Source: an uncultured Lachnospiraceae bacterium (lineage in GTDB: Bacteria; Bacillota; Clostridia; TANB77; CAG-508). From it: 64,000 bases of DNA. The stretch covers positions 29,113-93,112 of the forward strand of contig CAMEHU010000001.1 in the NCBI GenBank assembly GCA_945917765.1, written 5' to 3'. A program made the position numbers and the translations under genes. This document shows, in pieces, positions 29,682 through 57,272 of this stretch; within the stretch, counting starts at the first letter, position 1; each line of letters begins with the position of its first letter. The notes beneath the pieces were generated by a model. That model did no database searches. It saw only the letters and a program-made list of their open reading frames with translations, and was not told the origin of the DNA.

Positions 29682-30092
29682 TTAATCTCTACTATACAAA
29701 TCCCTTGTATAAACTTTATCTTTAACAACCTCCAAAGCACTTTCTAATCTATTAGCTAAAATAACATCACTATCTTCAGAAAATTCTTCGAAATCATTTA
29801 CAACTCTACAACCATTAAACTCAGTTGCCTTTAAAGTAGGTTCATAAATAATAATTTCAACATCCTCATCTTTTAATCTTTCAATAATACCTTGAATGGC
29901 ACTTGCTCTAAAGTTATCAGAATCTGTTTTCATTGTTAATCTATAAATACCAACTACTTCAGGGTCTCTACGCATAATCATTTCAGTTATATGTTTCTTT
30001 CTAGTTCTATTAGAACGTACAATAGCTCTAATTAAGTTTTGTGGTACATTATCATAATTAGCTAATAATTGCTTTGTATCTTTTGGTAAACA
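29682..30092 (-). pseudogene. ugd: 3' fragment of UDP-glucose 6-dehydrogenase, beginning at the catalytic Cys codon
   Basis: [13 protein letters not shown]...[22 protein letters not shown]...KVYTRDLY is the HasB/Ugd C-terminus. The expected upstream GYGGY is replaced by unrelated sequence. Confidence 0.9.
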
Positions 30093-30165
30093 ACCTGTCG
30101 CTTCTATTGTGTGTAATATTCTTAACAAAAACCAAAAGAAAACCTGTATTTATGCAGGTTTTAAG
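30085..30165. other. Putative att junction and terminal palindrome
   Basis: ugd homology stops at 30092/30093; the palindrome aaaacctgtatttatgcaggtttt overlaps the last recombinase stop codon. Confidence 0.6.
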
Positions 30166-31847
30166 TAACTTTTGTTTTTCTTGACATATTTTAGTAAATT
30201 TTGATAAATATCTTGATATTTAAAAACAATCTCGACTTTTTTATCTTCAAAAATATATATGCATTCTATAAATTTAAAAAGTATATCTCTATCAATTTTC
30301 TTAAATAATTCTCTATTGTTAAAAAGTTTTATTAAATCAACTTGATAGTTTGGAATATTATCTAATTCTTCCAATTCCTTATCAATTATTTTAATTGTTT
30401 CTCTAATTTCTAAAATTTCATTATTATATGAACTTGAATAATTTTTATAATCTTCAAAAGTTATTATTTCTTCTTTCCAATCTGTATATAAAGATTGTTT
30501 TAATTTCATTTTTTGGTTAATACTTTCTGATAAAGTATTTTTTCTTTCTAGCAGAATATCTCCTTTTATTGATAATTTTTTATTTTTAGAAATCAATTCT
30601 AAATCATCATTTAATTTGGTAACTAACTTTATTTGCTTGTTAATTGATTTTCTTACAATTTCAATTAAATCGTCTTCTTTTATTCTATGAGGAGTACAGC
30701 CCTTTGAATTAACTTTATTAGTACCACATATATAATATTTTAATCTACTTCCATCTTTTCTTGGTCTTCTACTCTCTAAATAATAAAGTCCTCTATGACA
30801 ATCATTACAAATTAAAAAGCCTGAAAACAAAGCGTAATCATGATTTTTTCTTCTTATTTGAATTATCTTTGAATAATACTTTTCTTGAATCCATTTAAAA
30901 TCTTCTTTACTTACTAATGCTTCATGGGTATTTTCAACTCTAATCCAATCTTCTTTTTCTACATCTATTCTTTTCTTCAACTTATAACTTATTTTATTCT
31001 TTTTATTTTGAATTAAGTTACCTGTATAAATTTCATTTCTTAATATATTTGATATAATTCTTGGATTCCATTTTATTTCATCAATATTTTCATCTGTTAC
31101 AATATTAGTCTTATAAGATTGACCTTTTTGCTTTTTATATTGAGAAGGTGTTGGAAATTTTCTTTCGTTAAGATAATCTGCAATCTGAATTGCTGTTTTA
31201 TTATTTAATGCTAATTCAAAAATCAGTTTCACTATTTTTGCACCTTCCATATCAATTAGCAAATGATATTTATTATCTGGATCTTTTCTATATCCAAATG
31301 GTACATGTGCAGCTATATATTCTCCCTTTTTTTGTTTTATTCTATATACAGATTTTATCTTTCTTGAAATATCTCTTGCGTATTCATCATTAATAAGATT
31401 CTTGAAATTTACTAACATACTGCTCGATGACTCAGGATTTTTAAAGCTATCTATTTTATCAATTATTGATATGAATCGTACCCTCATAGTTGGAAAAGTA
31501 TCTTCTAAAAATCTTCCAACCTCTACATAGTTCCTGCCAAACCTTGATAAATCTTTAACTATGATTGTATCGATTTTACTTTTTTTTAAATCTTTTAACA
31601 TTTCTTGAAATCCTGGTCTATTGAAACTTGTGCCAGAATATCCATCATCTACATATTCACTAATAAAAACCAAATCTTCATTACTATCAATATACTTTTT
31701 TATAATTCTTCTTTGATTTTCTATACTATTACTCTCTGTATCTTTTTTAATTTTGTCTTCTTGGGATAATCTCAAATATATTCCAACTTTAAATAAAGTA
31801 TCATTTTCATTTCTATATCTCGAAATAGACATTTTCATCACCTCCAT
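30150..31847 (-). CDS. Large serine recombinase (4th in operon)
   Basis: YLRLS catalytic motif, DDGYSG, RPGF, DLSRFGRN, recombinase domain, Zn ribbon CNDC, coiled coil. Confidence 0.93.
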   Translation of the reverse strand: MEVMKMSISRYRNENDTLFKVGIYLRLSQEDKIKKDTESNSIENQRRIIKKYIDSNEDLVFISEYVDDGYSGTSFNRPGFQEMLKDLKKSKIDTIIVKDLSRFGRNYVEVGRFLEDTFPTMRVRFISIIDKIDSFKNPESSSSMLVNFKNLINDEYARDISRKIKSVYRIKQKKGEYIAAHVPFGYRKDPDNKYHLLIDMEGAKIVKLIFELALNNKTAIQIADYLNERKFPTPSQYKKQKGQSYKTNIVTDENIDEIKWNPRIISNILRNEIYTGNLIQNKKNKISYKLKKRIDVEKEDWIRVENTHEALVSKEDFKWIQEKYYSKIIQIRRKNHDYALFSGFLICNDCHRGLYYLESRRPRKDGSRLKYYICGTNKVNSKGCTPHRIKEDDLIEIVRKSINKQIKLVTKLNDDLELISKNKKLSIKGDILLERKNTLSESINQKMKLKQSLYTDWKEEIITFEDYKNYSSSYNNEILEIRETIKIIDKELEELDNIPNYQVDLIKLFNNRELFKKIDRDILFKFIECIYIFEDKKVEIVFKYQDIYQNLLKYVKKNKSYLKPA

Positions 31848-31907
31848 TACAATTTACTTTATTTTGATTGTTTGTACGATTGTGTCATTTTATATTTTGC
31901 ACATTAT

Positions 31908-31935
31908 AAAAGCAGAGCTTCAATTTACTCTGCTA
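31908..31935 (-). terminator. Possible terminator/attenuator between the 3rd and 4th recombinase
   Basis: Minus-strand agcagag..ctctgct stem followed by a short T tract. Confidence 0.5.
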
Positions 31936-33597
31936 TGTATTCTTTTTAATCTTTTTTGCTAACTTCAATAATTTTTTATATTCATCTTGATATTTAAATT
32001 CAATTTCAATAGTTCCGTCTTCATTTGAATAAATATTATTTATTAAATCATCAATTAACTTTTTATTAAGTGTTTTAATATTTTCATACTCTTTTATATT
32101 TTTAAATATTTCCTTATTATCATTTAGCTTTTCTTCTTCTTCCAATTTTTCAGAATATTTCTTGTATCTATCATTTAATATGTTAATTGTTTTTTCTGCA
32201 CCATTAACATATTTCATATATTCTTCTTTTGTAATAATACCAAGTTTCCAATCTTCATAAAACTTTTGCTTTATTTTCCTTTTTTCTTTCATTTCTTTTT
32301 CAATTCTTTCAATTGTTGCTTTTGTATCATTATCAGTTCCTTGATTTATTATTTCATCAATTAATTTGTCTGCTTTGAGATATAGTTTAATTTGATGTTT
32401 TATTGCTTTTAAAACAATCTTATCTAAATTTTCACTTCTAATCATATTTTTTATACATTCATTTCTAGAAATATTAGTATAGGTAGAACAATAATAATTG
32501 TAATTCATAATTTCTGGATTACTTCTTCTATGTCCTGTATATTTTCTAATCATAAATTTTTTACATTTACCACATTTCAAATGTCCTGCATATAAATTAG
32601 GCTGGCTTTTAATTGCACCTGTATATTGTTTTTCTTCTAATATCTTTTGAACTTTTTTAAATTCCTCTCTTGTAATTATTGCATCATGTGTATTTTCGAC
32701 AATGATCCATTCTTCTTTATCTGTTCTTATTGATTTATGGTTTTTATGACTTAAACATTTTTGTTTGCCTTGAATCAAATCACCACAATATACTTGATTT
32801 TCTAATATAGATTTAACCGATTGAATAGTCCATTTTTTATTAGAAATTGTTTCTTCTGTACAACTGGGATTTCCATATTTTAAATTTTGAACTTCTTTTT
32901 TATATCTTGAAGGGCAATAGATGTCATTATCGTTCAAATACCTTACTATAGCGCCATATCCTTCTCCATCTATGAATTTTTTATATATTAATTTTATTAT
33001 TTTAGCTGCTTCGTCATCAATTATAAACTTATGCTTATCCTCTGGGTTTTTGATATAGCCATAAGGAGCAAGTCCTTGCATAAAATTTCCTTTTTTAGCC
33101 CCAATAAGTTTAACACTTCTAATTTTTCTAGATATATCTCTACAATACTCTTCATTTATCATATTTTTAAAAGGAAATATCATGCTATTTAGTGATTCAG
33201 GATTTTTAAAATTATCTATTTTATCACTTATTGATATAAATCTAATTTTGTACTGAGGAAATACTTGTTCAATAAAATTTCCAACTTCAATATAGTTTCT
33301 ACCAAACCTTGACAAGTCTTTAACTATAATTGTATTTATAGATCCTTTTTGAATATCATCTAGCATTCTTTGAAAAGAAGGTCTTTTAAAGTCTGTTCCA
33401 GTAAAGCCATCATCTATATAATAATCATATAATTCAATATCACTCTCATTTTTTAAGTAATAATCAATTATTTCTCTTTGACTTGTCACAGAATTGCTTT
33501 CTTCTTTATCACCATCTTCTTGGCTTAATCTTATATATGCAGCACAATTAAATTTTTTCTTAGTTATTTCATTCGACTTATATCTACTTTTCCCCAT
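31933..33597 (-). CDS. Large serine recombinase (3rd)
   Basis: YIRLS, DDGFTG, DLSRFGRN, Zn ribbon CGKC. Confidence 0.93.
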   Translation of the reverse strand: MGKSRYKSNEITKKKFNCAAYIRLSQEDGDKEESNSVTSQREIIDYYLKNESDIELYDYYIDDGFTGTDFKRPSFQRMLDDIQKGSINTIIVKDLSRFGRNYIEVGNFIEQVFPQYKIRFISISDKIDNFKNPESLNSMIFPFKNMINEEYCRDISRKIRSVKLIGAKKGNFMQGLAPYGYIKNPEDKHKFIIDDEAAKIIKLIYKKFIDGEGYGAIVRYLNDNDIYCPSRYKKEVQNLKYGNPSCTEETISNKKWTIQSVKSILENQVYCGDLIQGKQKCLSHKNHKSIRTDKEEWIIVENTHDAIITREEFKKVQKILEEKQYTGAIKSQPNLYAGHLKCGKCKKFMIRKYTGHRRSNPEIMNYNYYCSTYTNISRNECIKNMIRSENLDKIVLKAIKHQIKLYLKADKLIDEIINQGTDNDTKATIERIEKEMKEKRKIKQKFYEDWKLGIITKEEYMKYVNGAEKTINILNDRYKKYSEKLEEEEKLNDNKEIFKNIKEYENIKTLNKKLIDDLINNIYSNEDGTIEIEFKYQDEYKKLLKLAKKIKKNT

Positions 33598-35191
33598 TGC
33601 TTATCTCCTTACTAAAATTTCTTATCATTTCATATACATCATTATTCAAATATATAATTTCAATTGATTTATCTGATTTTACATATATTACTTCAATCAA
33701 TTCTTCTAATATTTTTTCATTAAGTTCATCTAAATTACGATATTTCTTAAAACATCTTATAAAATCTTTAATAATTCTTTTGTCATGTGATAATGTGAAT
33801 TCCTTTTCTTTAAGTTTGTTTAATTCTTTCAAAAGTTTCTTCATTTCGTTATTGTATGTTTCAAAATAAAAATCATAATCGTCATTTGTAATTAAATCTT
33901 TCTTTAAATCGTACAAAATTTCTTTTTTTAAATTTTCTAATTCTTCCATTCTCTTATTTTTTAAAGATATTTCATCTGCAATTTTAACTAATTCTTCATT
34001 ATCATGCATAGAATCGAGTTTATTAATTTCAAAATCTATTAGAAATTCTGTATCACTATTTATTTTCTCAATTACTTTACTCATTAATTCTTCATATTTA
34101 ATACTTCTGCTTAAGCAAAGTTTCTTTGACATTCTTTTATAAGTGAAACAATTATATACCAAATAAGTTTTATCTTTGTATTTGTTGCATGATGTTTTAA
34201 CCATATTTTTTTTACAATCATAGCATTTTAAATATCCTCTAAAGATTGAGTTAAAAACATTTCTTTTTAACTTTGTAGCTGTCGTCCTAGATAAGATACA
34301 TTCTTGAGCTTTTTTGAATGTTTCTTTATCTATTATTGGCTCATGATGATTTTCAACTCTAATCCAATCTTCTTTTGGCACAGGAACACTAACTCTTACT
34401 TTATTATTTAGTGTGGTAGTTTTTCCTTGAACTAAAGTGCCACAGTAAACTTCATTTTTTAGAATATTACTTATTTTTGTAGAATCCCAATAATATTTTT
34501 TAGAATGCTCAACATTATTTCTTTTACAAAAATGTTCTTTTGGACAATCAATATTTTCTTCATTTAGTTTATAAGCAATTTTTGTTGAGCTTTCTCCTGC
34601 AATGCACATTTCAAATATCATTGTAATTATATCTTTAACTTCTAAATCTATAACATAGTTTTTATCTTTTAATAAATATCCATATGGTGCAGAACCACTG
34701 GTTATTTCTCCATTCAACCTTTGTACTTCTTTTACTTTTTTTACTTTTCTAGCAATATCCCTACAATATTCATCGTTCATTAGATTTTTAAATGGTACTA
34801 TTACGCTATTTAAAGACTCGGGATTTTTAACATTATCAATGTTGTCATTAATAGATATAAATCTTATTCCCATACTTGGGAATATATAATCTATATATCT
34901 TCCAACTTCGATATAGTTTCTACCAAATCTTGATAAATCTTTAACTATAATGCAATCTATTTTTTTATCATACATATCTTTCATCATTCTTTGAAATCCT
35001 GGTCTATCAAAATTTGTTCCAGTTCTGCCATCATCAGAATAATATCCGTAAATCGAAATATCATCTTGCTCGTCTATAAATTCGTTAATTAAATCCCTTT
35101 GATTCTTTATAGAATTGCTTTCTTCAAATTTGTTGCCATCTTCTCTCGAAAGTCTTATATAGGCTCCAGCTTTATAAATTTTTTTATCCAT
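33584..35191 (-). CDS. Large serine recombinase (2nd)
   Basis: YIRLS, DDGRTG, DLSRFGRN, Zn ribbon CYDC. Confidence 0.93.
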   Translation of the reverse strand: MDKKIYKAGAYIRLSREDGNKFEESNSIKNQRDLINEFIDEQDDISIYGYYSDDGRTGTNFDRPGFQRMMKDMYDKKIDCIIVKDLSRFGRNYIEVGRYIDYIFPSMGIRFISINDNIDNVKNPESLNSVIVPFKNLMNDEYCRDIARKVKKVKEVQRLNGEITSGSAPYGYLLKDKNYVIDLEVKDIITMIFEMCIAGESSTKIAYKLNEENIDCPKEHFCKRNNVEHSKKYYWDSTKISNILKNEVYCGTLVQGKTTTLNNKVRVSVPVPKEDWIRVENHHEPIIDKETFKKAQECILSRTTATKLKRNVFNSIFRGYLKCYDCKKNMVKTSCNKYKDKTYLVYNCFTYKRMSKKLCLSRSIKYEELMSKVIEKINSDTEFLIDFEINKLDSMHDNEELVKIADEISLKNKRMEELENLKKEILYDLKKDLITNDDYDFYFETYNNEMKKLLKELNKLKEKEFTLSHDKRIIKDFIRCFKKYRNLDELNEKILEELIEVIYVKSDKSIEIIYLNNDVYEMIRNFSKEISNGEK

Positions 35192-36806
35192 AGTTTATCT
35201 CCTTTCCTATCATTTCTAATATTTTCTTGTTTATATCGTTATATTTAAATTTTATTTCTATTTTATTATTTTCAAATACATATATTGTTTCAATTAATTC
35301 ATCTACAGTTTCTCTATCCAATGAAGTGATATTACAAAATTGCTTATACTTCACAATATAATTATCTATTGTTTCGTCTTTCATGCCATTAAGTTTATCT
35401 TCAAATTCTTTAATTTTATTATTAATTTCATTTATGCTTTTAGAATAATTTTCTACAAATATAAAATAATCATTTTGAGATATAATGTTTTTTTTCCAAT
35501 CCATATATGATTCTCTTTTCAATACATCTAATTTTGATAATTCTTCATTTAGTTCTTTTATTTTCTCTTTATACTCTGCTTTCATTTCTTCTTTTCTATT
35601 TTCAGCATAAATTTTTTTTATTAATTTTTCTTGTTCTAAAACAAGTTTAGTTTGATTTTGAATTGCTTTTAATACTAAATCTTCTAAAACTTCATATTTA
35701 ATACCATGTCTTGTACATAAATTATGAGATTTTCTTGTATAAGTTGAGCAATAATAGTGAACCACTCTTGATCCATCTTTTCTTATAGTGCCAGATGTAT
35801 TTTTATGCATAGCACATTTACAATCACCACACTTAACTTTCCCTGCAAATGTTGATATTGTCCCATCATGATTACATTTCCATCCTCGGCTATCTAACAT
35901 CTTTTGAACTTTATCAAAATCATTATAACTTACTAATGCTTCATGAGTTCCTTTTACAATAATCCAATTTTCTTTGCTGTTTTTTACTCTTTTGTGTATT
36001 TTATAGCTAACTGTCTTATATTTACATTGAACCATTTCACCTAAATACACTCTGTTTCTTAATATATGAGCAACCATACTATCATTCCAATAGTTGCTTT
36101 TACCACTATTTCTATAATTACATTTGATTTTTAAAACATTTATTTTATGAAGTGATGGAGTATTTATTCCATCTTTATTTAATTTTCTGGCAATTGCTGT
36201 TGTTCCTAATCCTTTTAGTGCATTTTTAAATATTTTTTTTACAACTTTTGCAGCCTCGTCATCTATAACCAATTTATGTTTGTCTTCGGTACTTCTAATA
36301 TATCCATAAGGAATCATTGAACCCATAAATTCGCCATTTCTTTTTCTTGTATTTAATGCATATTTAACTTTTTGTGATATATCTCTACAATATTCGTCAT
36401 TCATTAAATTTTTGAAAGGTACTATAATACTGTTTATTGATTCTGGATCTTTATAACTATCTATACAATCATTAATCGCAATGAATCTAATATTATTAAC
36501 AGGAAATATCTGCTCTAAATAGTTACCAACTTCAATATAGTTTCTACCAAATCTTGATAAATCTTTTACTATAATGGTATTTATAACATTATTTTCGACA
36601 TCAGCAATTAATCTTTTAAAATCTGGTCTGTCAAAATTTGTTCCAGACCATCCATCATCAATATAATAGTCATATACATTTAGTTCTTTATCCTCACTAA
36701 TATAACTATTAATAAGTTCTCTCTGATTTGTTACAGAATTACTTTCTTCTTTATCTCCATCTTCTTGACTTAATCTAATATATATTCCAACATTCCATTT
36801 ATTCAT
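35184..36806 (-). CDS. Large serine recombinase (1st)
   Basis: YIRLS, DDGWSG, DLSRFGRN, Zn ribbon CGDC. Confidence 0.93.
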   Translation of the reverse strand: MNKWNVGIYIRLSQEDGDKEESNSVTNQRELINSYISEDKELNVYDYYIDDGWSGTNFDRPDFKRLIADVENNVINTIIVKDLSRFGRNYIEVGNYLEQIFPVNNIRFIAINDCIDSYKDPESINSIIVPFKNLMNDEYCRDISQKVKYALNTRKRNGEFMGSMIPYGYIRSTEDKHKLVIDDEAAKVVKKIFKNALKGLGTTAIARKLNKDGINTPSLHKINVLKIKCNYRNSGKSNYWNDSMVAHILRNRVYLGEMVQCKYKTVSYKIHKRVKNSKENWIIVKGTHEALVSYNDFDKVQKMLDSRGWKCNHDGTISTFAGKVKCGDCKCAMHKNTSGTIRKDGSRVVHYYCSTYTRKSHNLCTRHGIKYEVLEDLVLKAIQNQTKLVLEQEKLIKKIYAENRKEEMKAEYKEKIKELNEELSKLDVLKRESYMDWKKNIISQNDYFIFVENYSKSINEINNKIKEFEDKLNGMKDETIDNYIVKYKQFCNITSLDRETVDELIETIYVFENNKIEIKFKYNDINKKILEMIGKEINYG

Positions 36807-37042
36807 ATTCTAATTCCCCATTCTGGAATAATAATGTTTGAAATTTTAACACCATTCCAATATTTAATCTTAATATTTGCACATTTATTTTGAAAAATTT
36901 TATTTTTAATTTCTCCCATTGTTATATACTCTCTTTTTATTTTTGCTAAAGTCTGTGAAATCATATTTATATTTAATACACTATCTTCAGTTTCTTCTTT
37001 TTTGCTAATTCTAACGTACATAGCAAACTTCAATTCATTCAT
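36803..37042 (-). CDS. 79-aa protein starting with a serine-recombinase catalytic-strand motif
   Basis: FAMYVRISKKEETEDS parallels GIYIRLSQEDGDKEES; GAAGGGAG RBS; ATGA overlap with recombinase 1. Confidence 0.65.
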   Translation of the reverse strand: MNELKFAMYVRISKKEETEDSVLNINMISQTLAKIKREYITMGEIKNKIFQNKCANIKIKYWNGVKISNIIIPEWGIRI

Positions 37043-37120
37043 ATTTTTCTCCCTTCGGCTACATAATATCTAAAATTTAAAGACCAAGCCAATGTGCGAT
37101 TCTGGAATTTTTATACTTGA

Positions 37121-37408
37121 TTATTTATTAATAATTTGCTTTATAGCATTATGAATACAGTCCTCAGCCTCCACTCCATTTTCTTGATATGAAAATTTAA
37201 CAACATAACCATCAATATTAAAAAAATAAGGATTACTAACTTTTTTTAAAAAGTCAATAACCCTTTCTTCTGGTTCTAAATTTTCATCTATTTTTATATT
37301 ATCTATATTATCTATTTCACTAACATTAATGTTTTTAATATTCATACTTTTGTAATTATTTATTTTACTTTCGATTTCTTTTTGTTCTTCTAAACTCAAC
37401 GATCTCAT
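37121..37408 (-). CDS. DUF6870-like small protein that typically precedes serine recombinase clusters
   Basis: IKIDENLEPEERVIDFLKKVSNPYFF...VVKFSY pattern and position. Confidence 0.65.
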   Translation of the reverse strand: MRSLSLEEQKEIESKINNYKSMNIKNINVSEIDNIDNIKIDENLEPEERVIDFLKKVSNPYFFNIDGYVVKFSYQENGVEAEDCIHNAIKQIINK

Positions 37409-37607
37409 AATTACCTCCTTCTAAAACTTTTATTCTGTAGCATTCTAAATAAAATTCATTTTTTTTATAATTCCAGATAGAGGATTTCATAACTACATCA
37501 AGCACCTTTTCTTTAGCCTCATTCATATTATGTGCTTGCAACATCATATTTTCTTTTTGGTTATTATGGACAATACAAACTAGATAATTAAATAATCTTT
37601 CTCTCAT
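37365..37607 (-). CDS. Hypothetical protein
   Basis: 80-aa ORF with a GGAGG RBS, overlapping both neighbours. Confidence 0.6.
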   Translation of the reverse strand: MRERLFNYLVCIVHNNQKENMMLQAHNMNEAKEKVLDVVMKSSIWNYKKNEFYLECYRIKVLEGGNYEIVEFRRTKRNRK

Positions 37608-37705
37608 TGCTTATCCTCCCAAGAAGAACATCTACTTGAAACTATACAAGCAGCATAACAAAATATTGCTATTATCAAAAATATTATTCCTATTATTATA
37701 ATCAT
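37604..37705 (-). CDS. Unannotated 33-aa single-TM peptide MIIIIGIIFLIIAIFCYAACIVSSRCSSWEDKQ
   Basis: AGGAG RBS inside the mazF 3' end; ATGA overlaps at both ends. Confidence 0.55.
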   Translation of the reverse strand: MIIIIGIIFLIIAIFCYAACIVSSRCSSWEDKQ

Positions 37706-38079
37706 TTACTTTTCCTCCTAAATTCCAAAGTTTTTTCTAATCCTTTATTTATCTTTTTTATAGTTTTATTATTTGCTCTACCTATAAATTCATTCTTAAT
37801 TCGGCTTTTATCTAATACTCTTATTTGTTCTAATAAAATAACTGAATCATACTTCAGCTTTCCAAATTTTTTTATATTTATATGAGATGGCAAATTTGGT
37901 TTATTGTTTATTTTTTTAGTAAGTGGTGCAATTATAACGGTTGGATTTTTCCAGTTTCCTTTATCAGTTTGTACAACAATTACTGGTCTAATTCCACCTT
38001 GTTCACTACCTATTTTAGGTTCTAAATTTGCATAAAAAATTGTGCCTTTTAAATATCTCAAAACTACTCCTTCCTTCAT
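37702..38079 (-). CDS. PemK/MazF family toxin (no adjacent antitoxin)
   Basis: GSEQGGIRPVIVVQ, IIAPLT, ILLEQIRVLDKSR; the real start is probably TTG at 38061. Confidence 0.88.
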   Translation of the reverse strand: MKEGVVLRYLKGTIFYANLEPKIGSEQGGIRPVIVVQTDKGNWKNPTVIIAPLTKKINNKPNLPSHINIKKFGKLKYDSVILLEQIRVLDKSRIKNEFIGRANNKTIKKINKGLEKTLEFRRKSK

Positions 38080-38139
38080 GTAAAAAGGTCAAACATAATT
38101 TGACCTTTATTGATTTCATTATATTTATTATTGTTAATA

Positions 38140-38285
38140 TTTTTCCTTGAACCCCTTAACACTGGGAAATCATCAAACGATTGAAAGCTACTTCAATTCC
38201 ACGAGAATTTCACTCTCTTGTGGTTCTCACAAGACTGCCCCCATTGCGTGAGTCTGTGGCTAGGCAGGAGTATCATTATTACTAT
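38140..38285 (-). ncRNA. Candidate structured RNA leader upstream of the mazF-recombinase operon
   Basis: GC-rich non-coding island with several stems, including GAGAG-TGAAA-TTCTC (T-loop-like) and agact/agtct. Confidence 0.4.
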
Positions 38286-38512
38286 TATTAATCTTCGCAT
38301 ATTAGGAGCAACCTAATTTTATAATCAAATATTAATCGACATGCGTATTTATTAATGTGCTTTTAATAATAGGAATGTATTTGATGAATGTATATAAAAT
38401 TTTCAAAGATCATAAAGTTTCTTAGCTTTAAAAATAAAAGCGAGGAACTTTGAAAGGACTTTATTCCTTTCAATTGTTTCCTCACTTAAATCAGAAATCG
38501 GAACCTATTTTT

Positions 38513-38992
38513 TTAAATTAATTTATTTTTTTCAAAATAACATTTAATTTTATTTCTTCCTTGTTCTAATGATTTTCGAATCATTCTATCTGAACAATGC
38601 TCTAATGTTGCTATTTGAGAAGTTGTTAATTCTTCAAAATAAAACATTTTAATTCTTCTTTTTATAGTTTTTGGTAATTCATTAATTGCTTTCATTAAAT
38701 CTTCATACCTAGATTTTTTTATAAAGTCATCTTCAATACTACCATAAATAAGATTTGCTCTTTTATATAATGTTTCTTCATACACTTCTGATCTTTCTTT
38801 ATGCCTTTCATCTTTATTCATTTGAGATTTATCTTCTAGTTCAAATTCATTAAAAGCCTCAAATTGTTTTTCTGTAACTTCTACAGTATTTAATATATTT
38901 TTTACATCTTTAAATTCAACATAGTATTTATTATTAATTACTAATAATGTATATGGATTATCTTTACTTTTCCTTCTTTTAGGTCTATTCAC
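38513..38992 (-). CDS. Sigma-70 region-4 domain regulator (Tn916 Orf7-like)
   Basis: AINELPKTIKRRIKMFYFEELTTSQIATLEHCS region-4 HTH; GTG start after GGAGG. Confidence 0.82.
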   Translation of the reverse strand: MNRPKRRKSKDNPYTLLVINNKYYVEFKDVKNILNTVEVTEKQFEAFNEFELEDKSQMNKDERHKERSEVYEETLYKRANLIYGSIEDDFIKKSRYEDLMKAINELPKTIKRRIKMFYFEELTTSQIATLEHCSDRMIRKSLEQGRNKIKCYFEKNKLI

Positions 38993-39058
38993 CTTTATTC
39001 CTCCAATCAATCTAAATTTTTTAAATTGATTGGAATAGGTGGACTTCTACACCTAAAA

Positions 39059-39075
39059 ACCGACATTTTTCGACA
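39059..39075 (-). promoter_or_regulatory. Tandem Spo0A-like boxes upstream of the ICE sigma-like gene
   Basis: Minus strand reads TGTCGAA-aaa-TGTCGGT. Confidence 0.45.
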
Positions 39076-39505
39076 AAGAAAAAAGCCAGTCGTAAAAACG
39101 TTTTTGTCTTTACAACTGACTTTAACATCAAAATTATTTAATTTTTGAGGGTATTTATCCCACGAATATTCAATATAAATAAAACAAAATAAAATTTTAA
39201 CATAGTTGAAAACTCTCATAAGGCGAATGTCCTCCTTATGTAGAGCTAATGTCTTATAAGAGCTATCACAAAAGAATTTATTTGTCCTTTGTAACTCTTA
39301 ATATTAAATTTTATTTCTTTTTATTCTTTAAATATATTTACAATACATATATCAACTAGCCACCATTATGACATTGCTGCTACTTGGGTTGTATTATATA
39401 CTTTTTTCCTACAAATTTCATTATATTTAAACATTTTCTTAAAAATTGTTAATTTTAAGTATAAAAAAAGAAACACAACTCAAATGTGCTTCTTCACAAT
39501 TAAAA

Positions 39506-40612
39506 TTACTGATCGTTCTTTAACAGCTTTTGAGATTTGTCTATGTCAATAAAATAAATCATTTCCAATATTAAAATAAAATTATATTGATATGAATAAT
39601 TATTTTCAAAAATACCATATAAAGAAAATAATATAAACACCAAAGATATCATTTTGTTTTTGGAAATTTTTTTGGCAACAGAAAAATTAATTATTATATA
39701 TAATGTAAATATTATAATTCCATCAATATATAAATGAGTTAAATATACATTATCTAAAGGAAAACCCGTAATAATAGATTTATCAAACAAACCTATATTA
39801 TATGTTGTGACATATTTATTCCAAAAATATAGCCTATTACTTAATATCTCATTTAACTTTCCAAATTGTAAATATTTACTTGCGAGAAAAATAGATATAA
39901 TTGTTAATATAAAATAACTATATTTCATATATTTCTCATACTTATTACTGCTAATTTTATCTGTTATTAGATTTAATATAGCCAAAATAATTGCAATTAA
40001 AAATCCTGTTCTACACAAAGTGATTTTATAAAAAAATAAACTAATCAAAAATATTATAAATGATACTTTTATTTTTTTAGCCAGTACATAATCTTTTTTA
40101 TATATCATAAATGAGGCAAATATTGGTATTAAGCACAAAAACAAAATATTAATTCCAGCAAAACCAAAGCTGTATCTTGTCACTATACCATCAGCCATTA
40201 CTCGTGCAGAATTGTTAGATGGCAAAATGCCAATCAAATATAAAAGAATTGTACATATAAATAATAATAATGAATTTATAAAATAATATTTTATAAATTT
40301 TTCATCTCCATTTTCTTCTACAGAAAATATAATTGCAAATATAATTGCAAATAGGAAATCGAATTTTGGATTAATAAAAACTATAATGCCTCCCATTATT
40401 AAAAGACAAATTACTTTTTTAAAATCCTTTTTTCTTATTTTATAGCTCAATATCGAAATAAACGAAACAAGTATAAATAATGTCATAATTATTGTCGGTG
40501 TTTCAAATTTTCCGACAAACAAATAATTCCACATTGAAAAATATTTTAAAAATAATGCTACAAAAACAATAACAAACAAAATCAAATTCTTTGGCTTTAT
40601 TTTCATTTTCAA
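39506..40612 (-). CDS. Wzy-like polysaccharide polymerase
   Basis: About 10 TM segments, RYSFGF, CRTG, SNRLYFW, PLDNVY; last gene of the glycosyltransferase cluster. Confidence 0.72.
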   Translation of the reverse strand: MKMKIKPKNLILFVIVFVALFLKYFSMWNYLFVGKFETPTIIMTLFILVSFISILSYKIRKKDFKKVICLLIMGGIIVFINPKFDFLFAIIFAIIFSVEENGDEKFIKYYFINSLLLFICTILLYLIGILPSNNSARVMADGIVTRYSFGFAGINILFLCLIPIFASFMIYKKDYVLAKKIKVSFIIFLISLFFYKITLCRTGFLIAIILAILNLITDKISSNKYEKYMKYSYFILTIISIFLASKYLQFGKLNEILSNRLYFWNKYVTTYNIGLFDKSIITGFPLDNVYLTHLYIDGIIIFTLYIIINFSVAKKISKNKMISLVFILFSLYGIFENNYSYQYNFILILEMIYFIDIDKSQKLLKNDQ

Positions 40613-40618
40613 ACCTCC

Positions 40619-41641
40619 TTATCTAGAACCAGTAATTACATTATAAAATTTAGGCAACATTTTATTTATAATCTTTGAAATTAATTGTATCAACCACACT
40701 GTTAATATTATAGTTAAAATGTATACTATTATTGAAACATAAGAATTATATCCTAAAATAATAAATAAGATTTTTCTTACTACTTTTATAACAGGCAAGT
40801 GAATACAATAAATAAAGAAACTTATTTTTTCAATATTATATATTTTATACTTATATAAACTAAACATATCCAAAATAGATAATAAAATAATAGGAGATAA
40901 CATTCTATAAATATAATATATCCTTGATGTTTCTTCAAAAGTAGATACAATAATTGCAAACAAAACATATAAAATTATAAATATTGGTAACTTGCTTTTT
41001 TTATTTTTAACAATATTTTCTTTTATGTCATAATCTTTGCTATGTATTCCCATATTTGCACCAAATAGATATATTGGCAACCAAAATATTGGATTAGAAT
41101 ATCCAAATTTAAATATCAAATTTACTGTTAAACATATAAGCATAATAATATAGTTTAATTTTTTTGACTTTTTCATTATAAAATATATTGCAGGTGCTAA
41201 AAAACTATAAATTATTAAATCACGTACAAACCACATACCTTCAGCACAATTAGCCATCAAAATATTTTGAAAAATATGACTTATACCAAGTTCAAATGTA
41301 TTATTAAATAATGTGTTTACCTTAGGAATTAAACAAATTAATTCATAATATATTAAGAAAAATATTGACCAAAAAAAGTATGGAATAACCAACGAAAAGA
41401 ATCTGCTTTTATATTTTTCTTTTATTTTTGAAAAGTCGAAATTTCTGTAAAATAAATAAGCTGATAATATAAAGAATGCTGGAACACTTGCATCACACAT
41501 TACAGAAATAATTTTATATATTTTTGTTATCATAAAATTATTATCGCTAATAAATCTCAAACAATTAGAATGCAATATTACAATTAATAATACAAGAATA
41601 AAATTAATATGTGTTATTTTTTTTGATACATTTTTATTCAC
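40619..41641 (-). CDS. Acyltransferase-3 family (O-acetyltransferase)
   Basis: VILHS, VPAFFILSAYLF, LVIPYFFWS, MWFVRDL, SFFIYCIH. Confidence 0.85.
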   Translation of the reverse strand: MNKNVSKKITHINFILVLLIVILHSNCLRFISDNNFMITKIYKIISVMCDASVPAFFILSAYLFYRNFDFSKIKEKYKSRFFSLVIPYFFWSIFFLIYYELICLIPKVNTLFNNTFELGISHIFQNILMANCAEGMWFVRDLIIYSFLAPAIYFIMKKSKKLNYIIMLICLTVNLIFKFGYSNPIFWLPIYLFGANMGIHSKDYDIKENIVKNKKSKLPIFIILYVLFAIIVSTFEETSRIYYIYRMLSPIILLSILDMFSLYKYKIYNIEKISFFIYCIHLPVIKVVRKILFIILGYNSYVSIIVYILTIILTVWLIQLISKIINKMLPKFYNVITGSR

Positions 41642-43041
41642 TTTTTTCGTTCCTTTCCTAAAAAATCATATTTTATATAATTAAAATTAATACAGAAATA
41701 AAATAATGCAGAAATAGATACTTGTAATAATAATTTTAAATATATATTTTTTATCAAACATCCTATAACTATAATTATAAGTGCCATGGCTATACATTTA
41801 TATAAATATTTTATAAAAAATTTAATCACATTTTTATAATCAATAAAATTCTTTGTACACACAATTTGATAAAGCATAACAAAAAATTCAGCTACTATGG
41901 TACCAATGCACGCACCATATGCACCATATTTCCTTATAAATATTAAATTTAGCACAAAATTCACAACAGCTCCAATAATAGTTGAATATACATAGATGTT
42001 GTCTTTTTCTTTTGGGATTAAATAGCTTGTTCTAATAACATTTGCAATTGATGTGAATATTACAGTTGGAATTAGAAGTTTGATAATATTACCAGTAATC
42101 TCAAATTCCTTTCCAAAGAAAATTGTTGAAAAATCAGAACTTACTAAGAATATTCCAAAACACATAGGCATAATAAAGAAAAATGTTAATCTAAATGTAT
42201 CCATTATCTTTCTTTCATATTCTTTATCATTGGTTTTTGACATGTGTGGCAACATTACTGTACCTAAAGCTGTTATAAAACTAATAGGAATATTAATTAT
42301 CTTTTCAGCACTCTCATAGTTTCCAAGTTCAATAGTATTTGAAAACATTCCAATCATAGTTTTATCCATAACTCTGTATATAGAATATGCTATTATAGGA
42401 ATAAACAATATCAAGCAAGGCTTCAAATTCTTCATAATTTCTTTAAATGATGGTTTACTAAATTTAATATATTTTTTTATATACAACCATAAATAAGCTT
42501 GACTAATAAAAGTACTTCCACTCATCAATAGAGTATATTTCCACAAATCATTGCTATCTTTTACAAATACAAAAGTTAAAATTAATGAAAGTACTTTTAT
42601 TATAATATTTCTACTAATAGTAATTTTAAACTTTTCTATCCCAAAGAAAAACCAATTAATATCCAATAGCACACTTAGTAAAAAAATAGATTGTATTAAC
42701 ATTATTTTCAAATTATATCTATACATAAAAAATATAAATATATAGTAAGCAGCAATCATTATAGATGTCAAAATAAATTGTAAACAATAAATATTAATAA
42801 AATTTTCTGACATTTTTTCTTTATCTTCACTGCTTTTAGCTATTTTTCTCGATCCATAATTATTTATTCCAATTAAACCACATAACATAAAATAGTAAAC
42901 TATTGAATATGTATAAGAATATATCCCTACATTTTCAACACCTAATGCTCTAGAAATATAAGGCGTTGAAATTAGTGGAATGATGAAAATAAAAATTTGA
43001 TACACTATATTATACATAAAATTTTTATTTGTTGTTTTCAT
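41638..43041 (-). CDS. wzx: Wzx oligosaccharide flippase
   Basis: KNFMYNIVYQ...PYISRALG, MDKTMIG, LGTVMLP, YGAYGACIGT. Confidence 0.88.
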   Translation of the reverse strand: MKTTNKNFMYNIVYQIFIFIIPLISTPYISRALGVENVGIYSYTYSIVYYFMLCGLIGINNYGSRKIAKSSEDKEKMSENFINIYCLQFILTSIMIAAYYIFIFFMYRYNLKIMLIQSIFLLSVLLDINWFFFGIEKFKITISRNIIIKVLSLILTFVFVKDSNDLWKYTLLMSGSTFISQAYLWLYIKKYIKFSKPSFKEIMKNLKPCLILFIPIIAYSIYRVMDKTMIGMFSNTIELGNYESAEKIINIPISFITALGTVMLPHMSKTNDKEYERKIMDTFRLTFFFIMPMCFGIFLVSSDFSTIFFGKEFEITGNIIKLLIPTVIFTSIANVIRTSYLIPKEKDNIYVYSTIIGAVVNFVLNLIFIRKYGAYGACIGTIVAEFFVMLYQIVCTKNFIDYKNVIKFFIKYLYKCIAMALIIIVIGCLIKNIYLKLLLQVSISALFYFCINFNYIKYDFLGKERKK

Positions 43042-44167
43042 TGTCTCTTCCACCAACACTTTCCCTCAAATATTTTATTGCCTCCATCTGCAATTCTTTT
43101 ATTTGATTATTGTATTCGGAATAATCCACATCTTTTAAATAATTAAAATTATTATCAAAATCATATGCAATAAGTCTATCTAGCATTTTCAATTGTGATA
43201 AAAGAGTTATAACTCTGTCATCATCTCCATACATATCTCCATTTTTTATAGTAAAAAATTTCTTATTATAAATAGTCGAAAATATTGTTCCATGAAACGA
43301 AGTAGTTAATACTAAATCAGCATTTTTTATATAGTATAAATAAGATGATGGATTTTCGTATTTAGCAAGTTCAAAGCCGAATCTTTTTATCATTCTTGTG
43401 CTATATGATTTACAACTCCATGTTATTACTTTCAAATTATATTTTTTTGAAATTTTCTTTACATATTTACATATATTTTGATTAAAACTTGGACAATAAA
43501 AAAATATATATTTTTCTTTTTCATTAATATCATTAGCAAGTATTTCATCATAGCAAGTTGCTGTTAAAATTAAAGTTGGATCTATTAGTACAGGCACATC
43601 TTTATTAATCATATCTTTAATCCATTTTTGTCCATTTCTTTCACGTATAGATAAATAATCATAGTTCATTAAATATTTTTTATATTTTTCAGGATTTTTC
43701 GCATATTTTAGTATATTTTTTGAACCAAAGCTTGGTGCATAAGCAACTTTTTTTGCACTATTTACCCATGGCAAAAAATATGCGTCGTCTGCATCTGGAA
43801 TAGTCACATTCCAAATTTGGTCACTCCCAGAAACAATACAACTATAATCTTTATCATTTAGTTCATTCATATTATTAAATTTATTTTTTGATAAATGAAA
43901 ATTTTTATCTCTAAATTCTTCGTATTTCATATTATTCATTTTTAATTTTCTATGATTAGGCAACAATAAAATATTCTTTAAAATATTTTTCAAAGAGTTA
44001 TTCTTAAAAAATATTTTATATAAATTTTTTTGACCTTCATTAGAAAAATCTATTATTTCTACATTATCACTGCAATATTTTTCAATGGATTTTTGCATTG
44101 CATATGATTCAAGCATAGAACCACAATTATATGAATTATGAAACGTTATTATTCCTATCTTTTTCAT
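43025..44167 (-). CDS. Polysaccharide pyruvyl transferase family protein
   Basis: ITFHNSYNCGSML, SGSDQIWN, YAPSFG, SIRE, DPT, TSFHGTIFS. Confidence 0.88.
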   Translation of the reverse strand: MKKIGIITFHNSYNCGSMLESYAMQKSIEKYCSDNVEIIDFSNEGQKNLYKIFFKNNSLKNILKNILLLPNHRKLKMNNMKYEEFRDKNFHLSKNKFNNMNELNDKDYSCIVSGSDQIWNVTIPDADDAYFLPWVNSAKKVAYAPSFGSKNILKYAKNPEKYKKYLMNYDYLSIRERNGQKWIKDMINKDVPVLIDPTLILTATCYDEILANDINEKEKYIFFYCPSFNQNICKYVKKISKKYNLKVITWSCKSYSTRMIKRFGFELAKYENPSSYLYYIKNADLVLTTSFHGTIFSTIYNKKFFTIKNGDMYGDDDRVITLLSQLKMLDRLIAYDFDNNFNYLKDVDYSEYNNQIKELQMEAIKYLRESVGGRDNENNK

Positions 44168-44179
44168 TTTTTTCTCCTT

Positions 44180-45154
44180 TTATATTAAAATATATTCTTC
44201 ACTATTTTTTTTGAATTTATTTCTTCGTATAAATCTAAACAAATGATACAAAAGACATTTCAGTTTAATTTTGTATAATGCATATTTAATTTTATTGCTT
44301 TTACTAACCATCAAACATAAAGTTTCTGCCTTATTATATGGAAAACTATATAACCTACATATATACTTCTTTGCATCACTATACTTTTCAATGTAAGATA
44401 TCCTCTCATAAAGCATTATAATAGCTCCTTGCAAGCAAAATTTTTTTATTTTTTCTTTATCATCTTCCAAAATATCGTAATCATTTAATAGATTAGTAAT
44501 TTTTTCATGAAATAATACATCAGAATCAAATATTCTGATATCAAATTTTTTTGTAGTTTGACCTACATATCTTCTATACAAATAAATTGGCTCGTTTATA
44601 CTTTGTATCTTTTCGGCTTTACTTAATGCTTCAATATTAAATAACATATCCTCTCCATTTATTATCTTATCATTAAACAAAATATTATTTTTCTCAATAA
44701 ATTCTTTTCTAAAAATTTTTGAATATGGACCAGCTATACATATATTTTCTTTATTATAACCAATTATATATTTTAGCAAATCATTTTTATTAGAGTCTAA
44801 ATTGTACTTTGAAAAATAAACTATGTCATAATTTTCTGCCATATAACTATTTATCTTGTCAAACCAATTTTTTTTAAGTTCATCATCAGCATCTACAAAC
44901 ATTATATAATTGCCTTTAGCTTTTTTAATTCCTAGATTTCTAGAGTATGAAACTCCATTATTAGAATTATCTATAAGTTCAATATTTTTATACTTTTTCA
45001 TAAGTTCTTTTATAATTTTTAAGCTATTATCTTTCGATCCATCATTTATAAGTATTACTTCGAATGAATTTTCAATATTATCAAAAATTGATTTCATACA
45101 TTTTTCTAAATACTTTTCGGCATTGTATACTGGAATAATTATCGACAATTTCAT
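44180..45154 (-). CDS. GT2 family glycosyltransferase
   Basis: SIIIPVYN, NDGSKD, GVSYSRN, FVDADD, GEDMLF. Confidence 0.92.
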   Translation of the reverse strand: MKLSIIIPVYNAEKYLEKCMKSIFDNIENSFEVILINDGSKDNSLKIIKELMKKYKNIELIDNSNNGVSYSRNLGIKKAKGNYIMFVDADDELKKNWFDKINSYMAENYDIVYFSKYNLDSNKNDLLKYIIGYNKENICIAGPYSKIFRKEFIEKNNILFNDKIINGEDMLFNIEALSKAEKIQSINEPIYLYRRYVGQTTKKFDIRIFDSDVLFHEKITNLLNDYDILEDDKEKIKKFCLQGAIIMLYERISYIEKYSDAKKYICRLYSFPYNKAETLCLMVSKSNKIKYALYKIKLKCLLYHLFRFIRRNKFKKNSEEYILI

Positions 45155-46125
45155 TCTTTTTCACCTAATTTCTTTATTTTTTTCAACACTTTTCTAAAAT
45201 TCACATATATATAAATAAATAATAAATTTTTATTTAGGTACATACTAAGTAATATTGAATAGATTTTACTATTAATGTATTCTTTTTGTATTTTATTAAT
45301 TATACTTATGAAATCTTGATTATTTATAATCGTTTTTAATTCTTTAAATTTGTTTACTTTAGCTAATTCTTTTTCAATTAATATAATTTTTTTGTTATCA
45401 ATTAATTTTTCATAACAATTTTTTGTAATCGAATTAATTTCATCAAGAGATTTATTAAAAGACTTTACATTGTTTAAAATGTTATCACTTGATAACGTAA
45501 TACTATTTGTATTGCTTAAACAATAATAATAATTTGCTTCAGCAAATTTTACATATTTAATATTATTTAAGTATTCAACTAGAAATAATGTATCTTCCAT
45601 AAAATGTAATTCAGATGAAAACTTCATTTTTTTTATTATTTTTGTTTCAAACAAGCAACCCCAAACACATCCTGGAAATGAATTAGCTAGTATTTTTTCA
45701 ATAAAATCACTAACCAAAATCTTATCTCTTTCAGTTTTATTATTAAAAATTTTATTACCTTTAAATGTTTTATAATTACTTCTAACCATAGTATCTTTTT
45801 CACAACAATTTAAAAGAGCTTCCAACAAATTTTCTTCCAAATAATCATCTGAATCTACAAATGTTATGTAATCTCCTTCTGCATTTGCTATTCCCCTATT
45901 TCTTGCACTTGAAGGTCCTTCATTTTTTTGAGTAAAAATTTTCAAAATTATATTTTTATTTTCATTTTTGAACTTTTTACATATTTTTAAACTATTATCT
46001 TTTGAACCATCATCAACAATTATTATTTCATAATTACTATAGGTTTGTCTTTTTATAGAATATAAACATTTTTCAATGTACTTTTCGGCATTATATAATG
46101 GAATAATTATTGAAATTTTTTTCAT
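45151..46125 (-). CDS. GT2 family glycosyltransferase
   Basis: SIIIPLYN, DDGSKD, GPSSARN, FVDSDD, MEDTLF. Confidence 0.92.
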   Translation of the reverse strand: MKKISIIIPLYNAEKYIEKCLYSIKRQTYSNYEIIIVDDGSKDNSLKICKKFKNENKNIILKIFTQKNEGPSSARNRGIANAEGDYITFVDSDDYLEENLLEALLNCCEKDTMVRSNYKTFKGNKIFNNKTERDKILVSDFIEKILANSFPGCVWGCLFETKIIKKMKFSSELHFMEDTLFLVEYLNNIKYVKFAEANYYYCLSNTNSITLSSDNILNNVKSFNKSLDEINSITKNCYEKLIDNKKIILIEKELAKVNKFKELKTIINNQDFISIINKIQKEYINSKIYSILLSMYLNKNLLFIYIYVNFRKVLKKIKKLGEKE

Positions 46126-46138
46126 TTTCTTTCCTCTC

Positions 46139-47185
46139 TTATTTGTTGTTATATATGCATCTAATTTTATTTATATATTTATTAATATCACTTACTTCAT
46201 CAAATTGTTGTAATGCATTTTTAGAATATTCTTTTAATTTTTTATCATCTTTCAACAAACTGATAATAGCATCCTCTAGCTCACTGTCATTGCTTGATAA
46301 ATACCCGTTTTTATTTTGCTTAACAATATCTTTCAAACCATCTGTAGGTGTGCTAATTATAGGCTTACCTAATGCCATTGCTTCTAATGCTACCATTGGA
46401 GTTCCTTCATATCTTGATGTCATAACTAATATTCTAGAATTATTTAAAATCTTGTAAGGATTTGTAACATACCCAAACAATTTTACATTTTCATTTAATT
46501 CAAAATTATCTATTAATTCTTTTATACTTTCGTACAATTCTCCTGTTCCAACTATTGCTGCCTTAATATTGTAACCTTTTACTTTAATATTTTTTATTAT
46601 TTTTAATAATCTTTCAGGGTTTTTAGCATAAGTCAATCTTCCTAAATAAATAATATCAAATGGTTCATATTTATTATTGTCATTTTCTATACTATTGATT
46701 ATTTCCTTTTTATTAATTACATTATATAAAATAATAGATTTTTCTTTAACTTTATCTTTAAATATATAATTATCAAAAGCGCTTTGTGAAACCCATATGA
46801 TTTTAGAAAAATTCTTAGAGCAATAATTAAACATCAGCGTTTTAATATTTACTTTTCTCATATTTTCATGATTCGAATGAACATGAGAAATTATTTTTGT
46901 TTTATTTCCACATATTAAAGAAGCCATAACGCTTGCTTTTATATCATGGGCATGAATTATATCTGGATCAAATTCTTCTATTGCTTTCTTTGTAGATTTA
47001 TAATCAAATTTATTAAGCTTTAAATGTTTTACTTTTCTCTCAGCTAGGCTTGCTTCATTTGGACCACTAGGACTACAATACACCATTTGAAAATCTTTGT
47101 CATTTTGAAATCCATTTATTATTTGGCATGCTACATTTTCTGCACCCGAGAAAACATCAGTACATATTAAATGTAATACTTTCAT
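46139..47185 (-). CDS. GT4 family glycosyltransferase
   Basis: GAEN, IIHAH, SRYEGTPMVALEAMALG (E-x7-E). Confidence 0.9.
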   Translation of the reverse strand: MKVLHLICTDVFSGAENVACQIINGFQNDKDFQMVYCSPSGPNEASLAERKVKHLKLNKFDYKSTKKAIEEFDPDIIHAHDIKASVMASLICGNKTKIISHVHSNHENMRKVNIKTLMFNYCSKNFSKIIWVSQSAFDNYIFKDKVKEKSIILYNVINKKEIINSIENDNNKYEPFDIIYLGRLTYAKNPERLLKIIKNIKVKGYNIKAAIVGTGELYESIKELIDNFELNENVKLFGYVTNPYKILNNSRILVMTSRYEGTPMVALEAMALGKPIISTPTDGLKDIVKQNKNGYLSSNDSELEDAIISLLKDDKKLKEYSKNALQQFDEVSDINKYINKIRCIYNNK

Positions 47186-50322: not shown

Positions 50323-50339
50323 TATTTACCACCTACTTT

Positions 50340-52673: not shown

Positions 52674-52676
52674 GAA

Positions 52677-53021
52677 TTAGCATTCCTCCTTTTTTAATTT
52701 TTCCTTAAATATTTCATAGTAGAAATTAGTTGGCTTGAAAGATAATTTACTTGGAATTAAAACTTCTGATTTAATCCATGCCAAAATTAGTTTTTCTGCT
52801 GGCATACCGTTATAGCTTATAAATCCTATTGCTGCAAAAGGAGAGGCTCCTAAAATACATATCCACGATAATGTTTCGATTCCTAAATGCTCTTTTAAAA
52901 TGAAATATAAAATTACAGCAACACCACAAGCTAATATAGAAAAAAAGAACTGCCTTAAAGACAGTCCAAAAAATATGCTTTCTGTATAATTTCTTATTTC
53001 TCTATTTATTTTAACTTCCAA
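52677..53021 (-). CDS. PrgI family protein
   Basis: INREIRNYTESIFFGLSLRQ, two TM segments, YNGMPAE. Confidence 0.85.
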   Translation of the reverse strand: MEVKINREIRNYTESIFFGLSLRQFFFSILACGVAVILYFILKEHLGIETLSWICILGASPFAAIGFISYNGMPAEKLILAWIKSEVLIPSKLSFKPTNFYYEIFKEKLKKEEC

Positions 53022-53023
53022 AC

Positions 53024-53716: not shown

Positions 53717-53718
53717 AA

Positions 53719-54030: not shown

Positions 54031-54041
54031 ACTAACACCTC

Positions 54042-54887: not shown

Positions 54888-54936
54888 CTCCTAAAAATAG
54901 TTAGAGGCAAGTAGTACTTGCCTCTCATTCAATAAC

Positions 54937-55269: not shown

Positions 55270-55273
55270 ATAT

Positions 55274-57261: not shown

Positions 57262-57272
57262 TTAAAAACCTC

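Follow-up and report, generated by a model that had tools for sequence, protein, structure and literature searches.

We propose that an integrative conjugative element (ICE) of the Tn1549/CTn4 type entered the ugd gene of its host at the codon for the catalytic cysteine of UDP-glucose 6-dehydrogenase (Ugd), by attP × attB recombination through a serine recombinase, and we put the probability of this reading at about 0.8. The evidence comes from a 64,000-nucleotide stretch of DNA, referred to below as the window, and from comparison of the junction that it contains with Ugd sequences from other hosts.

The 3' remnant of ugd occupies positions 29682..30092 on the minus strand (codons 253–388 and the stop) and was recognized from a match to PF03720, from alignments to PDB chains and from its identity to database proteins. 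Positions 29685–30092 encode residues 253–388 of a 388-residue Ugd, and all 136 residues are identical (100%) to those of five full-length database proteins (P0001–P0005, each of 388 residues). Translation gives 136 open codons followed by a double stop, without an internal stop or frameshift. The remnant is a fragment of a Ugd family member without functional membership, in that only the portion from the cysteine to the C-terminus is present; Pfam detects the UDP-binding C-terminal domain (PF03720) only, and both the NAD-binding N-terminal domain and the central domain are missing. Residues 1–252, the 5' half, are not encoded anywhere in the window, where a tblastn search with full-length P0003 recovered residues 253–388 only. 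Since the remnant is undecayed and matches the C-terminal 136 residues of intact proteins exactly, its intactness is most simply explained by a recent event. When genome contigs were scanned with full-length Ugd, partial matches being left out, the 80 loci kept were essentially full-length and intact with identities of at most 81%, the best match among them in the species-representative genomes (81%) being that of an uncultured Clostridiaceae MAG.

GC content is ∼26%, and among the core genes of the host flank are sipL, yabG, yunB, veg and rplM/rpsI; the GC content and the genes for SipL, YabG and YunB point to a spore-forming member of the Clostridia. Three further features of this flank may be recorded. 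A KAP-family P-loop NTPase of 964 residues (26148–29042), with weak similarity to PifA and QatA, separates the ugd remnant from the core genes yabG and veg and may be a defence gene of the native ugd neighbourhood. The dxs gene (DXP synthase; 6068–7946) is divided between two overlapping open reading frames (6813–7946 and 6068–6868) by a frameshift near 6835, inside the ...GIAEQHA... motif and with no long homopolymer there, and is either a pseudogene or the product of a sequencing error. A transposase-like gene of the PD-(D/E)XK nuclease family (PF12784; 18532–19389) adjoins rplM/rpsI in the core region.

The break itself can be placed closely. The minus strand at about 30100–30068 reads GAA GCG ACA GGT TGT TTA CCA AAA GAT ACA AAG CAA, in which the cysteine codon TGT occupies 30090–30092 and forms residue 13 of a 148-residue open reading frame made up of a leader and the remnant. 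In phmmer searches against PDB chains this frame aligns only from residue 13, the cysteine, which pairs with residue 289 of 3phl_A and residue 260 of 1dli_A; the query start is residue 13 for all five PDB Ugd chains listed and for all 25 of the plasmid-borne ugd matches listed. Cys260 of the Streptococcus pyogenes enzyme (1dli) is the catalytic nucleophile. At the nucleotide level, comparison with the intact ugd genes of other species gave 23 blastn alignments; 17 of them stop at 30093, four at 30092, one at 30088 and one at 30086, and none extends past 30093. Ten relatives carry FGYGGYCLPKD or FGFGGYCLPKD and read ...GGN TAY/TTY GGN GGN TAY TGY..., as opposed to ...GAA GCG ACA GGT TGT in the window; immediately 5' of the cysteine codon, ...GACAGGT in the window thus faces ...GGNGGNTAY in all ten, with the last base alone in common. 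The initial annotation had quoted this junction sequence, described the GYGGY-C-LPKD motif, set the start of homology at the cysteine codon (30090–30092) and reported 136 codons free of stops and shifts. The quoted letters match the window, the motif is correct, the 136 codons are open throughout, and phmmer, the blastn ends and the ten-relative comparison agree on the position to ∼1–3 nt. The break is therefore confirmed at the catalytic cysteine codon or one base before it, with that precision.

From the blastn ends and the comparison with the ten relatives, we infer a crossover at 30091..30093 on the minus strand. The core dinucleotide is likely to be the TG of the TGT codon or the TT across 30093/30092. 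The base at −1 (T) is common to attB in the element lineage found in the window; other element ends would have G, A or another base at this position, judging from leaders that end in M, E or L. Since base −1 differs between leaders, the core should lie at TG or later, provided that all lineages use the same core. Dyad symmetry was considered as a means of locating the core and was rejected: the local maximum at TG is weak (9–11 of 20 positions in all ten relatives) and other offsets score equally high.

On the other side of the break lies what appears to be the P arm of attR, an element end of 36 nt (30093..30128, minus strand) encoding a 12-residue leader in frame with the ugd remnant; the leader is identical in 31 of the 120 proteins listed in the search described below. 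A terminator-like hairpin follows at 30139..30162 on the minus strand (one site, against 0.2 expected in shuffled sequences) and overlaps the stop codon of the first recombinase gene, which lies 57 nt from the break with only this hairpin and the element end in between. The suggestion in the initial annotation that the break adjoins a mobile element is consistent with a serine recombinase gene ending so close to it.

Four large serine recombinase genes stand in tandem from this point, all on the minus strand, as is the ugd remnant: recombinase 1 (565 residues; 30150..31847), which is nearest to the junction, recombinase 2 (554 residues; 31933..33597), recombinase 3 (535 residues; 33584..35191), which overlaps recombinase 2 by 14 nt, and recombinase 4 (540 residues; 35184..36806), which overlaps recombinase 3 by 8 nt. 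All four proteins, 535–565 residues in length, contain the resolvase, recombinase and zinc-ribbon domains (PF00239, PF07508 and PF13408), and the motif Y24-x-R26-L27-S28 (recombinase 1 numbering), with Ser28 as its serine, is invariant in a four-way alignment. By these features the four genes are intact and are predicted to encode large serine recombinases. Because their pairwise identities are only 37–45%, they are probably old paralogues.

None of the four reaches an NCBIfam equivalog cutoff, CcrB and XisF lying far below theirs. A close relative with a known att site was not found in the plasmid and phage collections, in which the best match to recombinase 1 is 37% identical; TndX is 33% identical to it. 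DUF4368 falls just short of its 25-bit cutoff in recombinase 3 (23.8 bits) and recombinase 4 (24.7 bits) and has no Pfam match in recombinases 1 and 2. A P'-arm-like sequence was likewise not found inside the window, where the reverse complement of the P arm matches at no more than 18 of 26 positions, which is at chance level. Overlapping the start of recombinase 4 by 4 nt is an open reading frame of 79 residues (36803–37042), the N-terminus of which (..YVRIS..) resembles the catalytic motif of serine recombinases and for which PADLOC gave no match; it may be what is left of a fifth recombinase, or may encode a small protein with an accessory role.

This small open reading frame opens an accessory and regulatory block on the minus strand (36803..39010) that also encodes a DUF6870 protein, a MazF/PemK toxin (37702–38079, minus strand) and a sigma-70 region-4 protein. 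Upstream of the toxin gene, at 38199–38279, is a pemK RNA motif (Rfam RF02913, 61 bits). The next segment (39506..48327, minus strand) was identified as polysaccharide gene cargo from family matches and a low GC content, 21–23% as against 25–29% in its flanks. It encodes an acyltransferase, a Wzx-type flippase, a pyruvyl transferase, two GT2 and two GT4 glycosyltransferases and a Wzy-like membrane protein, the last without a family match; neither a priming transferase nor ugd was found in the cargo at 39506–48327.

From 48658 to 64000, again on the minus strand, a conjugation module runs off the window; Pfam matches, VirB4 identity and gene order all served in its recognition. It encodes a homologue of a CHAP-domain protein, VirB4, PrgI, pilin-like proteins and a VirD4-type coupling protein, followed by ArdC-N, DUF3801, a MobA/VirD2 relaxase, PIN, MobC/NikA, HTH, DUF3991-Toprim and DUF3848 proteins. 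The presence of a relaxase (PF03432), a coupling protein (PF02534) and VirB4 (PF19044/PF12846) in one module marks this as the conjugation module of an ICE. VirB4 is 79% identical to the 'CD1110 family' VirB4 of NZ_OY725736.1 (Monoglobus pectinilyticus), with which the backbone order is also shared. Near-identical DNA for 30093–39500 or 48658–64000 was not found in the plasmid and phage collections. The DNA from 30093 to beyond 64000 is, by its predicted gene content, a single ICE into which a serine-recombinase integration module has been swapped and which carries polysaccharide genes as cargo. The integrase end of this ICE borders directly on the ugd remnant, as expected of attR, and we accordingly regard 30093 as the probable attR junction.

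The same junction recurs in many other, unrelated gut bacteria. A collection of 5.8 billion proteins was searched for Ugd-containing proteins near the length of the 148-residue frame, and the best 120 short Ugd proteins were considered. The identical 12-residue leader is joined to CLPKD at the same codon in 31 of these, and 43 of the 120 start at the cysteine codon or within one codon of it without preceding Ugd sequence, which argues that the junction is not a product of chance. The leader is the same at all 12 positions in the 31 clusters, every one of which joins at the cysteine codon. The Ugd halves behind it are diverse: for the 32 sequences that include the window copy, pairwise identities range from 50 to 99.3% (median 64%), and single linkage gives 24 groups at ≥90% identity and 12 at ≥80%. 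Individual halves match intact genes of quite different hosts. That of P0261 is 98.5% identical to the intact ugd of a sequence titled uncultured Tenericutes (L006), that of P0277 is 97.8% identical to the intact ugd of one titled Clostridium sp. CAG:594 (L010) and that of P0181 is 97% identical to P0017. An element end that is invariant, joined to gene halves that vary and match their hosts, suggests repeated independent integration by one young ICE lineage. We assume, going by the window, that the 31 leader-bearing clusters also adjoin a recombinase gene. The leader was absent from the plasmid-borne ugd matches listed.

Twelve more of the 120 proteins listed begin here or within one codon, with a different leader or none. 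Their leaders are MQINMWFSQIENKL, ...LLYTIEATG, MLE, a bare M before the cysteine (two proteins) and, in seven cases, a start at MPKD. This suggests that further element lineages may use the same ugd site, although the MPKD-starting forms can be assigned to insertions by other lineages only tentatively.

It had been claimed in the initial annotation that an element directed at the most conserved motif of ugd would have a broad-host attB and that the target might be undescribed. A conservation scan bears out the former: when 79 ugd genes of many phyla were aligned by codon and scanned in 1121 sliding windows of 44 nt, the one that has the first two bases of the cysteine codon at its centre ranked fourth for nucleotide conservation, and the ten most conserved windows all overlap it. 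Because attB falls within the best-conserved DNA of the gene, a single ICE lineage can insert at an identical nucleotide position in hosts that are only distantly related. As to the latter, full-text literature searches that paired serine recombinase or integrase with ugd returned nothing relevant and no paper naming ugd as a target, and neither the name nor the accession of UDPG_MGDP_dh occurs in the text supplementary files of Durrant et al. (PMC10083194), as far as these were covered. The catalytic cysteine codon of ugd is thus an apparently undescribed but mechanistically ordinary integration site. What is new is the target codon, its use on at least 24 divergent host backgrounds, the four-gene cassette and the polysaccharide cargo; the insertion of a serine-recombinase ICE into a conserved intragenic site is already known as a mechanism.

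The counterpart of the remnant, a free 5' half, was sought among database proteins. The best 120 matches to Ugd residues 1–252 are all 388–389 residues long except for two (401 and 488 residues), and no fragment of ∼252 residues from a close relative was found among them, where one or two clusters were expected. Among the 150 representative-library matches listed, P0304 is the sole protein broken right after GGYC; in its 413 residues, Ugd sequence as far as ...FGYGGYC passes straight into the C-terminal portion of an FrhB/FdhB-like protein (PF04432). In P0322, from the same 150 matches, the break lies two codons before the position seen in P0304. Most of the other odd C-termini examined (P0404, P0358 and P0364) were rejected as real breaks, since they read as frameshifted Ugd; among the odd C-termini examined, P0304 and P0322 alone look like real breaks on the 5' side.

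A variant in which the ICE carries its own 3' half of ugd, so that the remnant would be a displaced copy, was also rejected, since mosaic Ugd proteins have their breakpoints at residues 317 and ∼138 and not at 253. P0121 matches P0003 at every position as far as residue 316 (100% identity), after which about half of the residues differ, and P0098 and P0110 differ solely before residue 138. This pattern suggests either homologous recombination within ugd or chimeric assembly, and the mosaic proteins would then be unrelated to the att site.

Several other explanations of the junction have to be weighed against integration at ugd by a site-specific ICE. The one closest to it accepts the integration but supposes that ugd can no longer be rebuilt, its 5' half having been lost or displaced by deletion, inversion or a second recombination; the four recombinases could then mean that the far end has a different att site. 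We consider this unlikely. It would account for a 5' half that is found neither in the window nor, as a fragment from a close relative, among the best 120 N-terminal matches, and for the fusion of P0304, the only clean 5'-side break at this codon among the matches listed, to an unrelated gene. The absence weighs little, however, when only one or two clusters of 5' fragments are expected among close relatives (P0181 and P0183), and the ICE continues past the end of the window; the related element L081 has more than 10 kb upstream of its Toprim gene. Decay is likewise not apparent in the 3' piece, which still agrees with intact proteins at every one of their last 136 residues. The recombinases might alternatively be transposon-like enzymes of low specificity, multi-targeting in the manner of TndX/TnpX, in which case ugd would be one of many sites and would appear special only through a search limited to Ugd. 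The near-threshold DUF4368 scores of recombinases 3 and 4 fit this explanation, DUF4368 being linked to a multi-targeting clade of large serine recombinases (LSRs) in the parts of Durrant et al. (2022; PMC10083194) drawn on here; so does the place of TndX, at 33% identity, among the nearer named relatives, and the recurrence search did cover Ugd fusion partners only. Yet a relaxed enzyme would scatter its insertions within the gene, whereas in the 31 leader-bearing proteins the join is always at the cysteine codon, and one nucleotide position is used on 24 or more ugd backgrounds with an identical element end; moreover, recombinases 1 and 2 have no DUF4368 match. On balance we regard relaxed targeting as quite improbable.

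The remaining two explanations deny that a host gene was split, and we give both very little credence. According to one, the Ugd fragment travels as part of the element, which the initial annotation had itself named as a finding that would tell against integration, or else it represents a true family of short proteins that have an N-terminus of their own; the fragment is indeed an intact open reading frame with a possible TTG start, and versions of 148 residues are common. Cargo, however, would show conservation equal to that of the leader. Instead, the leader is the same at 12 of 12 positions in the 31 clusters, as against identities of 50–99% (median 64%) for the rest, and individual fragments are 97–100% identical to the intact ugd of various species. 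The fragment is therefore host DNA and not cargo, at a site that has been hit repeatedly. According to the other explanation, the junction is an assembly chimera, a concern raised by the many metagenome assemblies among the sequences involved; it would have to have arisen identically in 31 protein clusters and on many contigs, some longer than 45 kb.

Under the preferred reading, integration of an ICE at the cysteine codon, the events may be reconstructed as follows. The integration module would be the cassette of four paralogous large serine recombinases at the end of the ICE, and either recombinase 1, as the nearest gene, or the cassette as a whole would catalyse the reaction. Recombination between attP and attB would take place within the TGT codon that specifies the catalytic cysteine, or directly ahead of it, and would leave at 30093 an attR composed, in that order, of the P arm of the element, the core and the B' arm of the host. 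The core would be 2 bp in length, attL would lie beyond the window and excision would restore ugd. Integration would leave the NAD-binding domain and the central domain of Ugd on one side and the nucleophile with the UDP-binding domain on the other, and with these parts separated, UDP-glucuronate synthesis from this gene would be lost for as long as the ICE remained integrated.

A bolder extension of this mechanism is that the ICE acts as a reversible surface-glycan switch of broad host range, turning ugd off, bringing in its own cassette and restoring the host glycan on excision. This extension is doubtful. If it were true, the loss of ugd would stop the supply of UDP-glucuronate and with it the synthesis of any glucuronate-containing host polysaccharide, and the ICE would bring its own Wzx/Wzy-type cassette which, lacking a priming transferase, would depend on the initiation and export machinery of the host. 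The four paralogous recombinases could in that case provide alternative landing sites or directional control. More generally, that ugd is lost while a polysaccharide cassette is brought in suggests an ability of ICEs to remodel the glycans of the cell surface.

The site adds to the catalogue of serine-integrase targets a well-supported new attB that lies in a widespread gene and has served for insertion on two dozen or more divergent backgrounds. It bears on the host range of ICEs in gut Firmicutes and on the annotation of ugd 'pseudogenes' in MAGs, with a possible bearing on the discovery of integrase tools.

Among known elements, the closest resemblance in the conjugation backbone is to the CTn4/CTn5/Tn1549-family ICEs of Clostridia, with which gene order and a VirB4 at 79% identity are shared; we presume the backbone to be of the CTn4 type. 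NZ_OY725736.1 is annotated with a 'CD1110 family' VirB4 and a 'CD1115 family' VirD4. As in the Monoglobus element (L081), the cargo slot lies between the gene for the CHAP-domain protein and the sigma-factor gene, and there, too, genes for a sigma factor and a MazF-family toxin separate the cargo from the integrase, comparable to the accessory block described here. The two differ in what occupies the exchangeable positions: the Monoglobus element has a tyrosine integrase (PF00589) in place of the four serine recombinases, and tet(O/32/O) and tet(40) in the slot that here holds polysaccharide genes.

The splitting of a gene by a serine-recombinase element has well-known parallels in the skin element, which splits sigK, and in SPbeta, which splits spsM. 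The host in the present case resembles those of skin and SPbeta in being, on the evidence of SipL, YabG and YunB, a probable spore former, whereas other hosts of the same ugd junction are titled Tenericutes and CAG:594. A similar arrangement is that of the A118-like prophage, which interrupts comK (mentioned in Ambroset et al., 2016; PMC4701971, in the part used here). In these systems the split gene can be restored when the element is excised precisely. Our element is like all three in splitting its target gene, and restoration of the gene by excision would extend the likeness.

A close parallel in organization is provided by streptococcal ICEs. In the part of Ambroset et al. (2016; PMC4701971) drawn on here, these are described as carrying a triplet of serine integrases at the end of the element, co-oriented with the target gene (mutT, hsdM or traG); their site-specific insertion disrupts the target and leaves repeats of 2–8 bp, and some of them carry Tn1549-type conjugation modules. 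To the extent of that description, the present ICE shares with them tandem paralogous serine recombinases at one end, co-oriented with a disrupted target gene of a non-essential type, and differs in having four recombinases, ugd as its target, a polysaccharide cargo and hosts among low-GC gut Clostridia and their relatives.

LSRs in general often target conserved sites within coding sequences, according to the sections of Durrant et al. (2022; PMC10083194) considered here, which include a comM-like Mg chelatase and a prolyl isomerase among the targets. The ugd site agrees with the single-site LSRs in those sections, in that a conserved segment within a widely distributed gene acts as attB in diverse hosts and is apparently used by several element lineages. 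Unlike the examples given there, the carrier at ugd is an ICE and not a phage.
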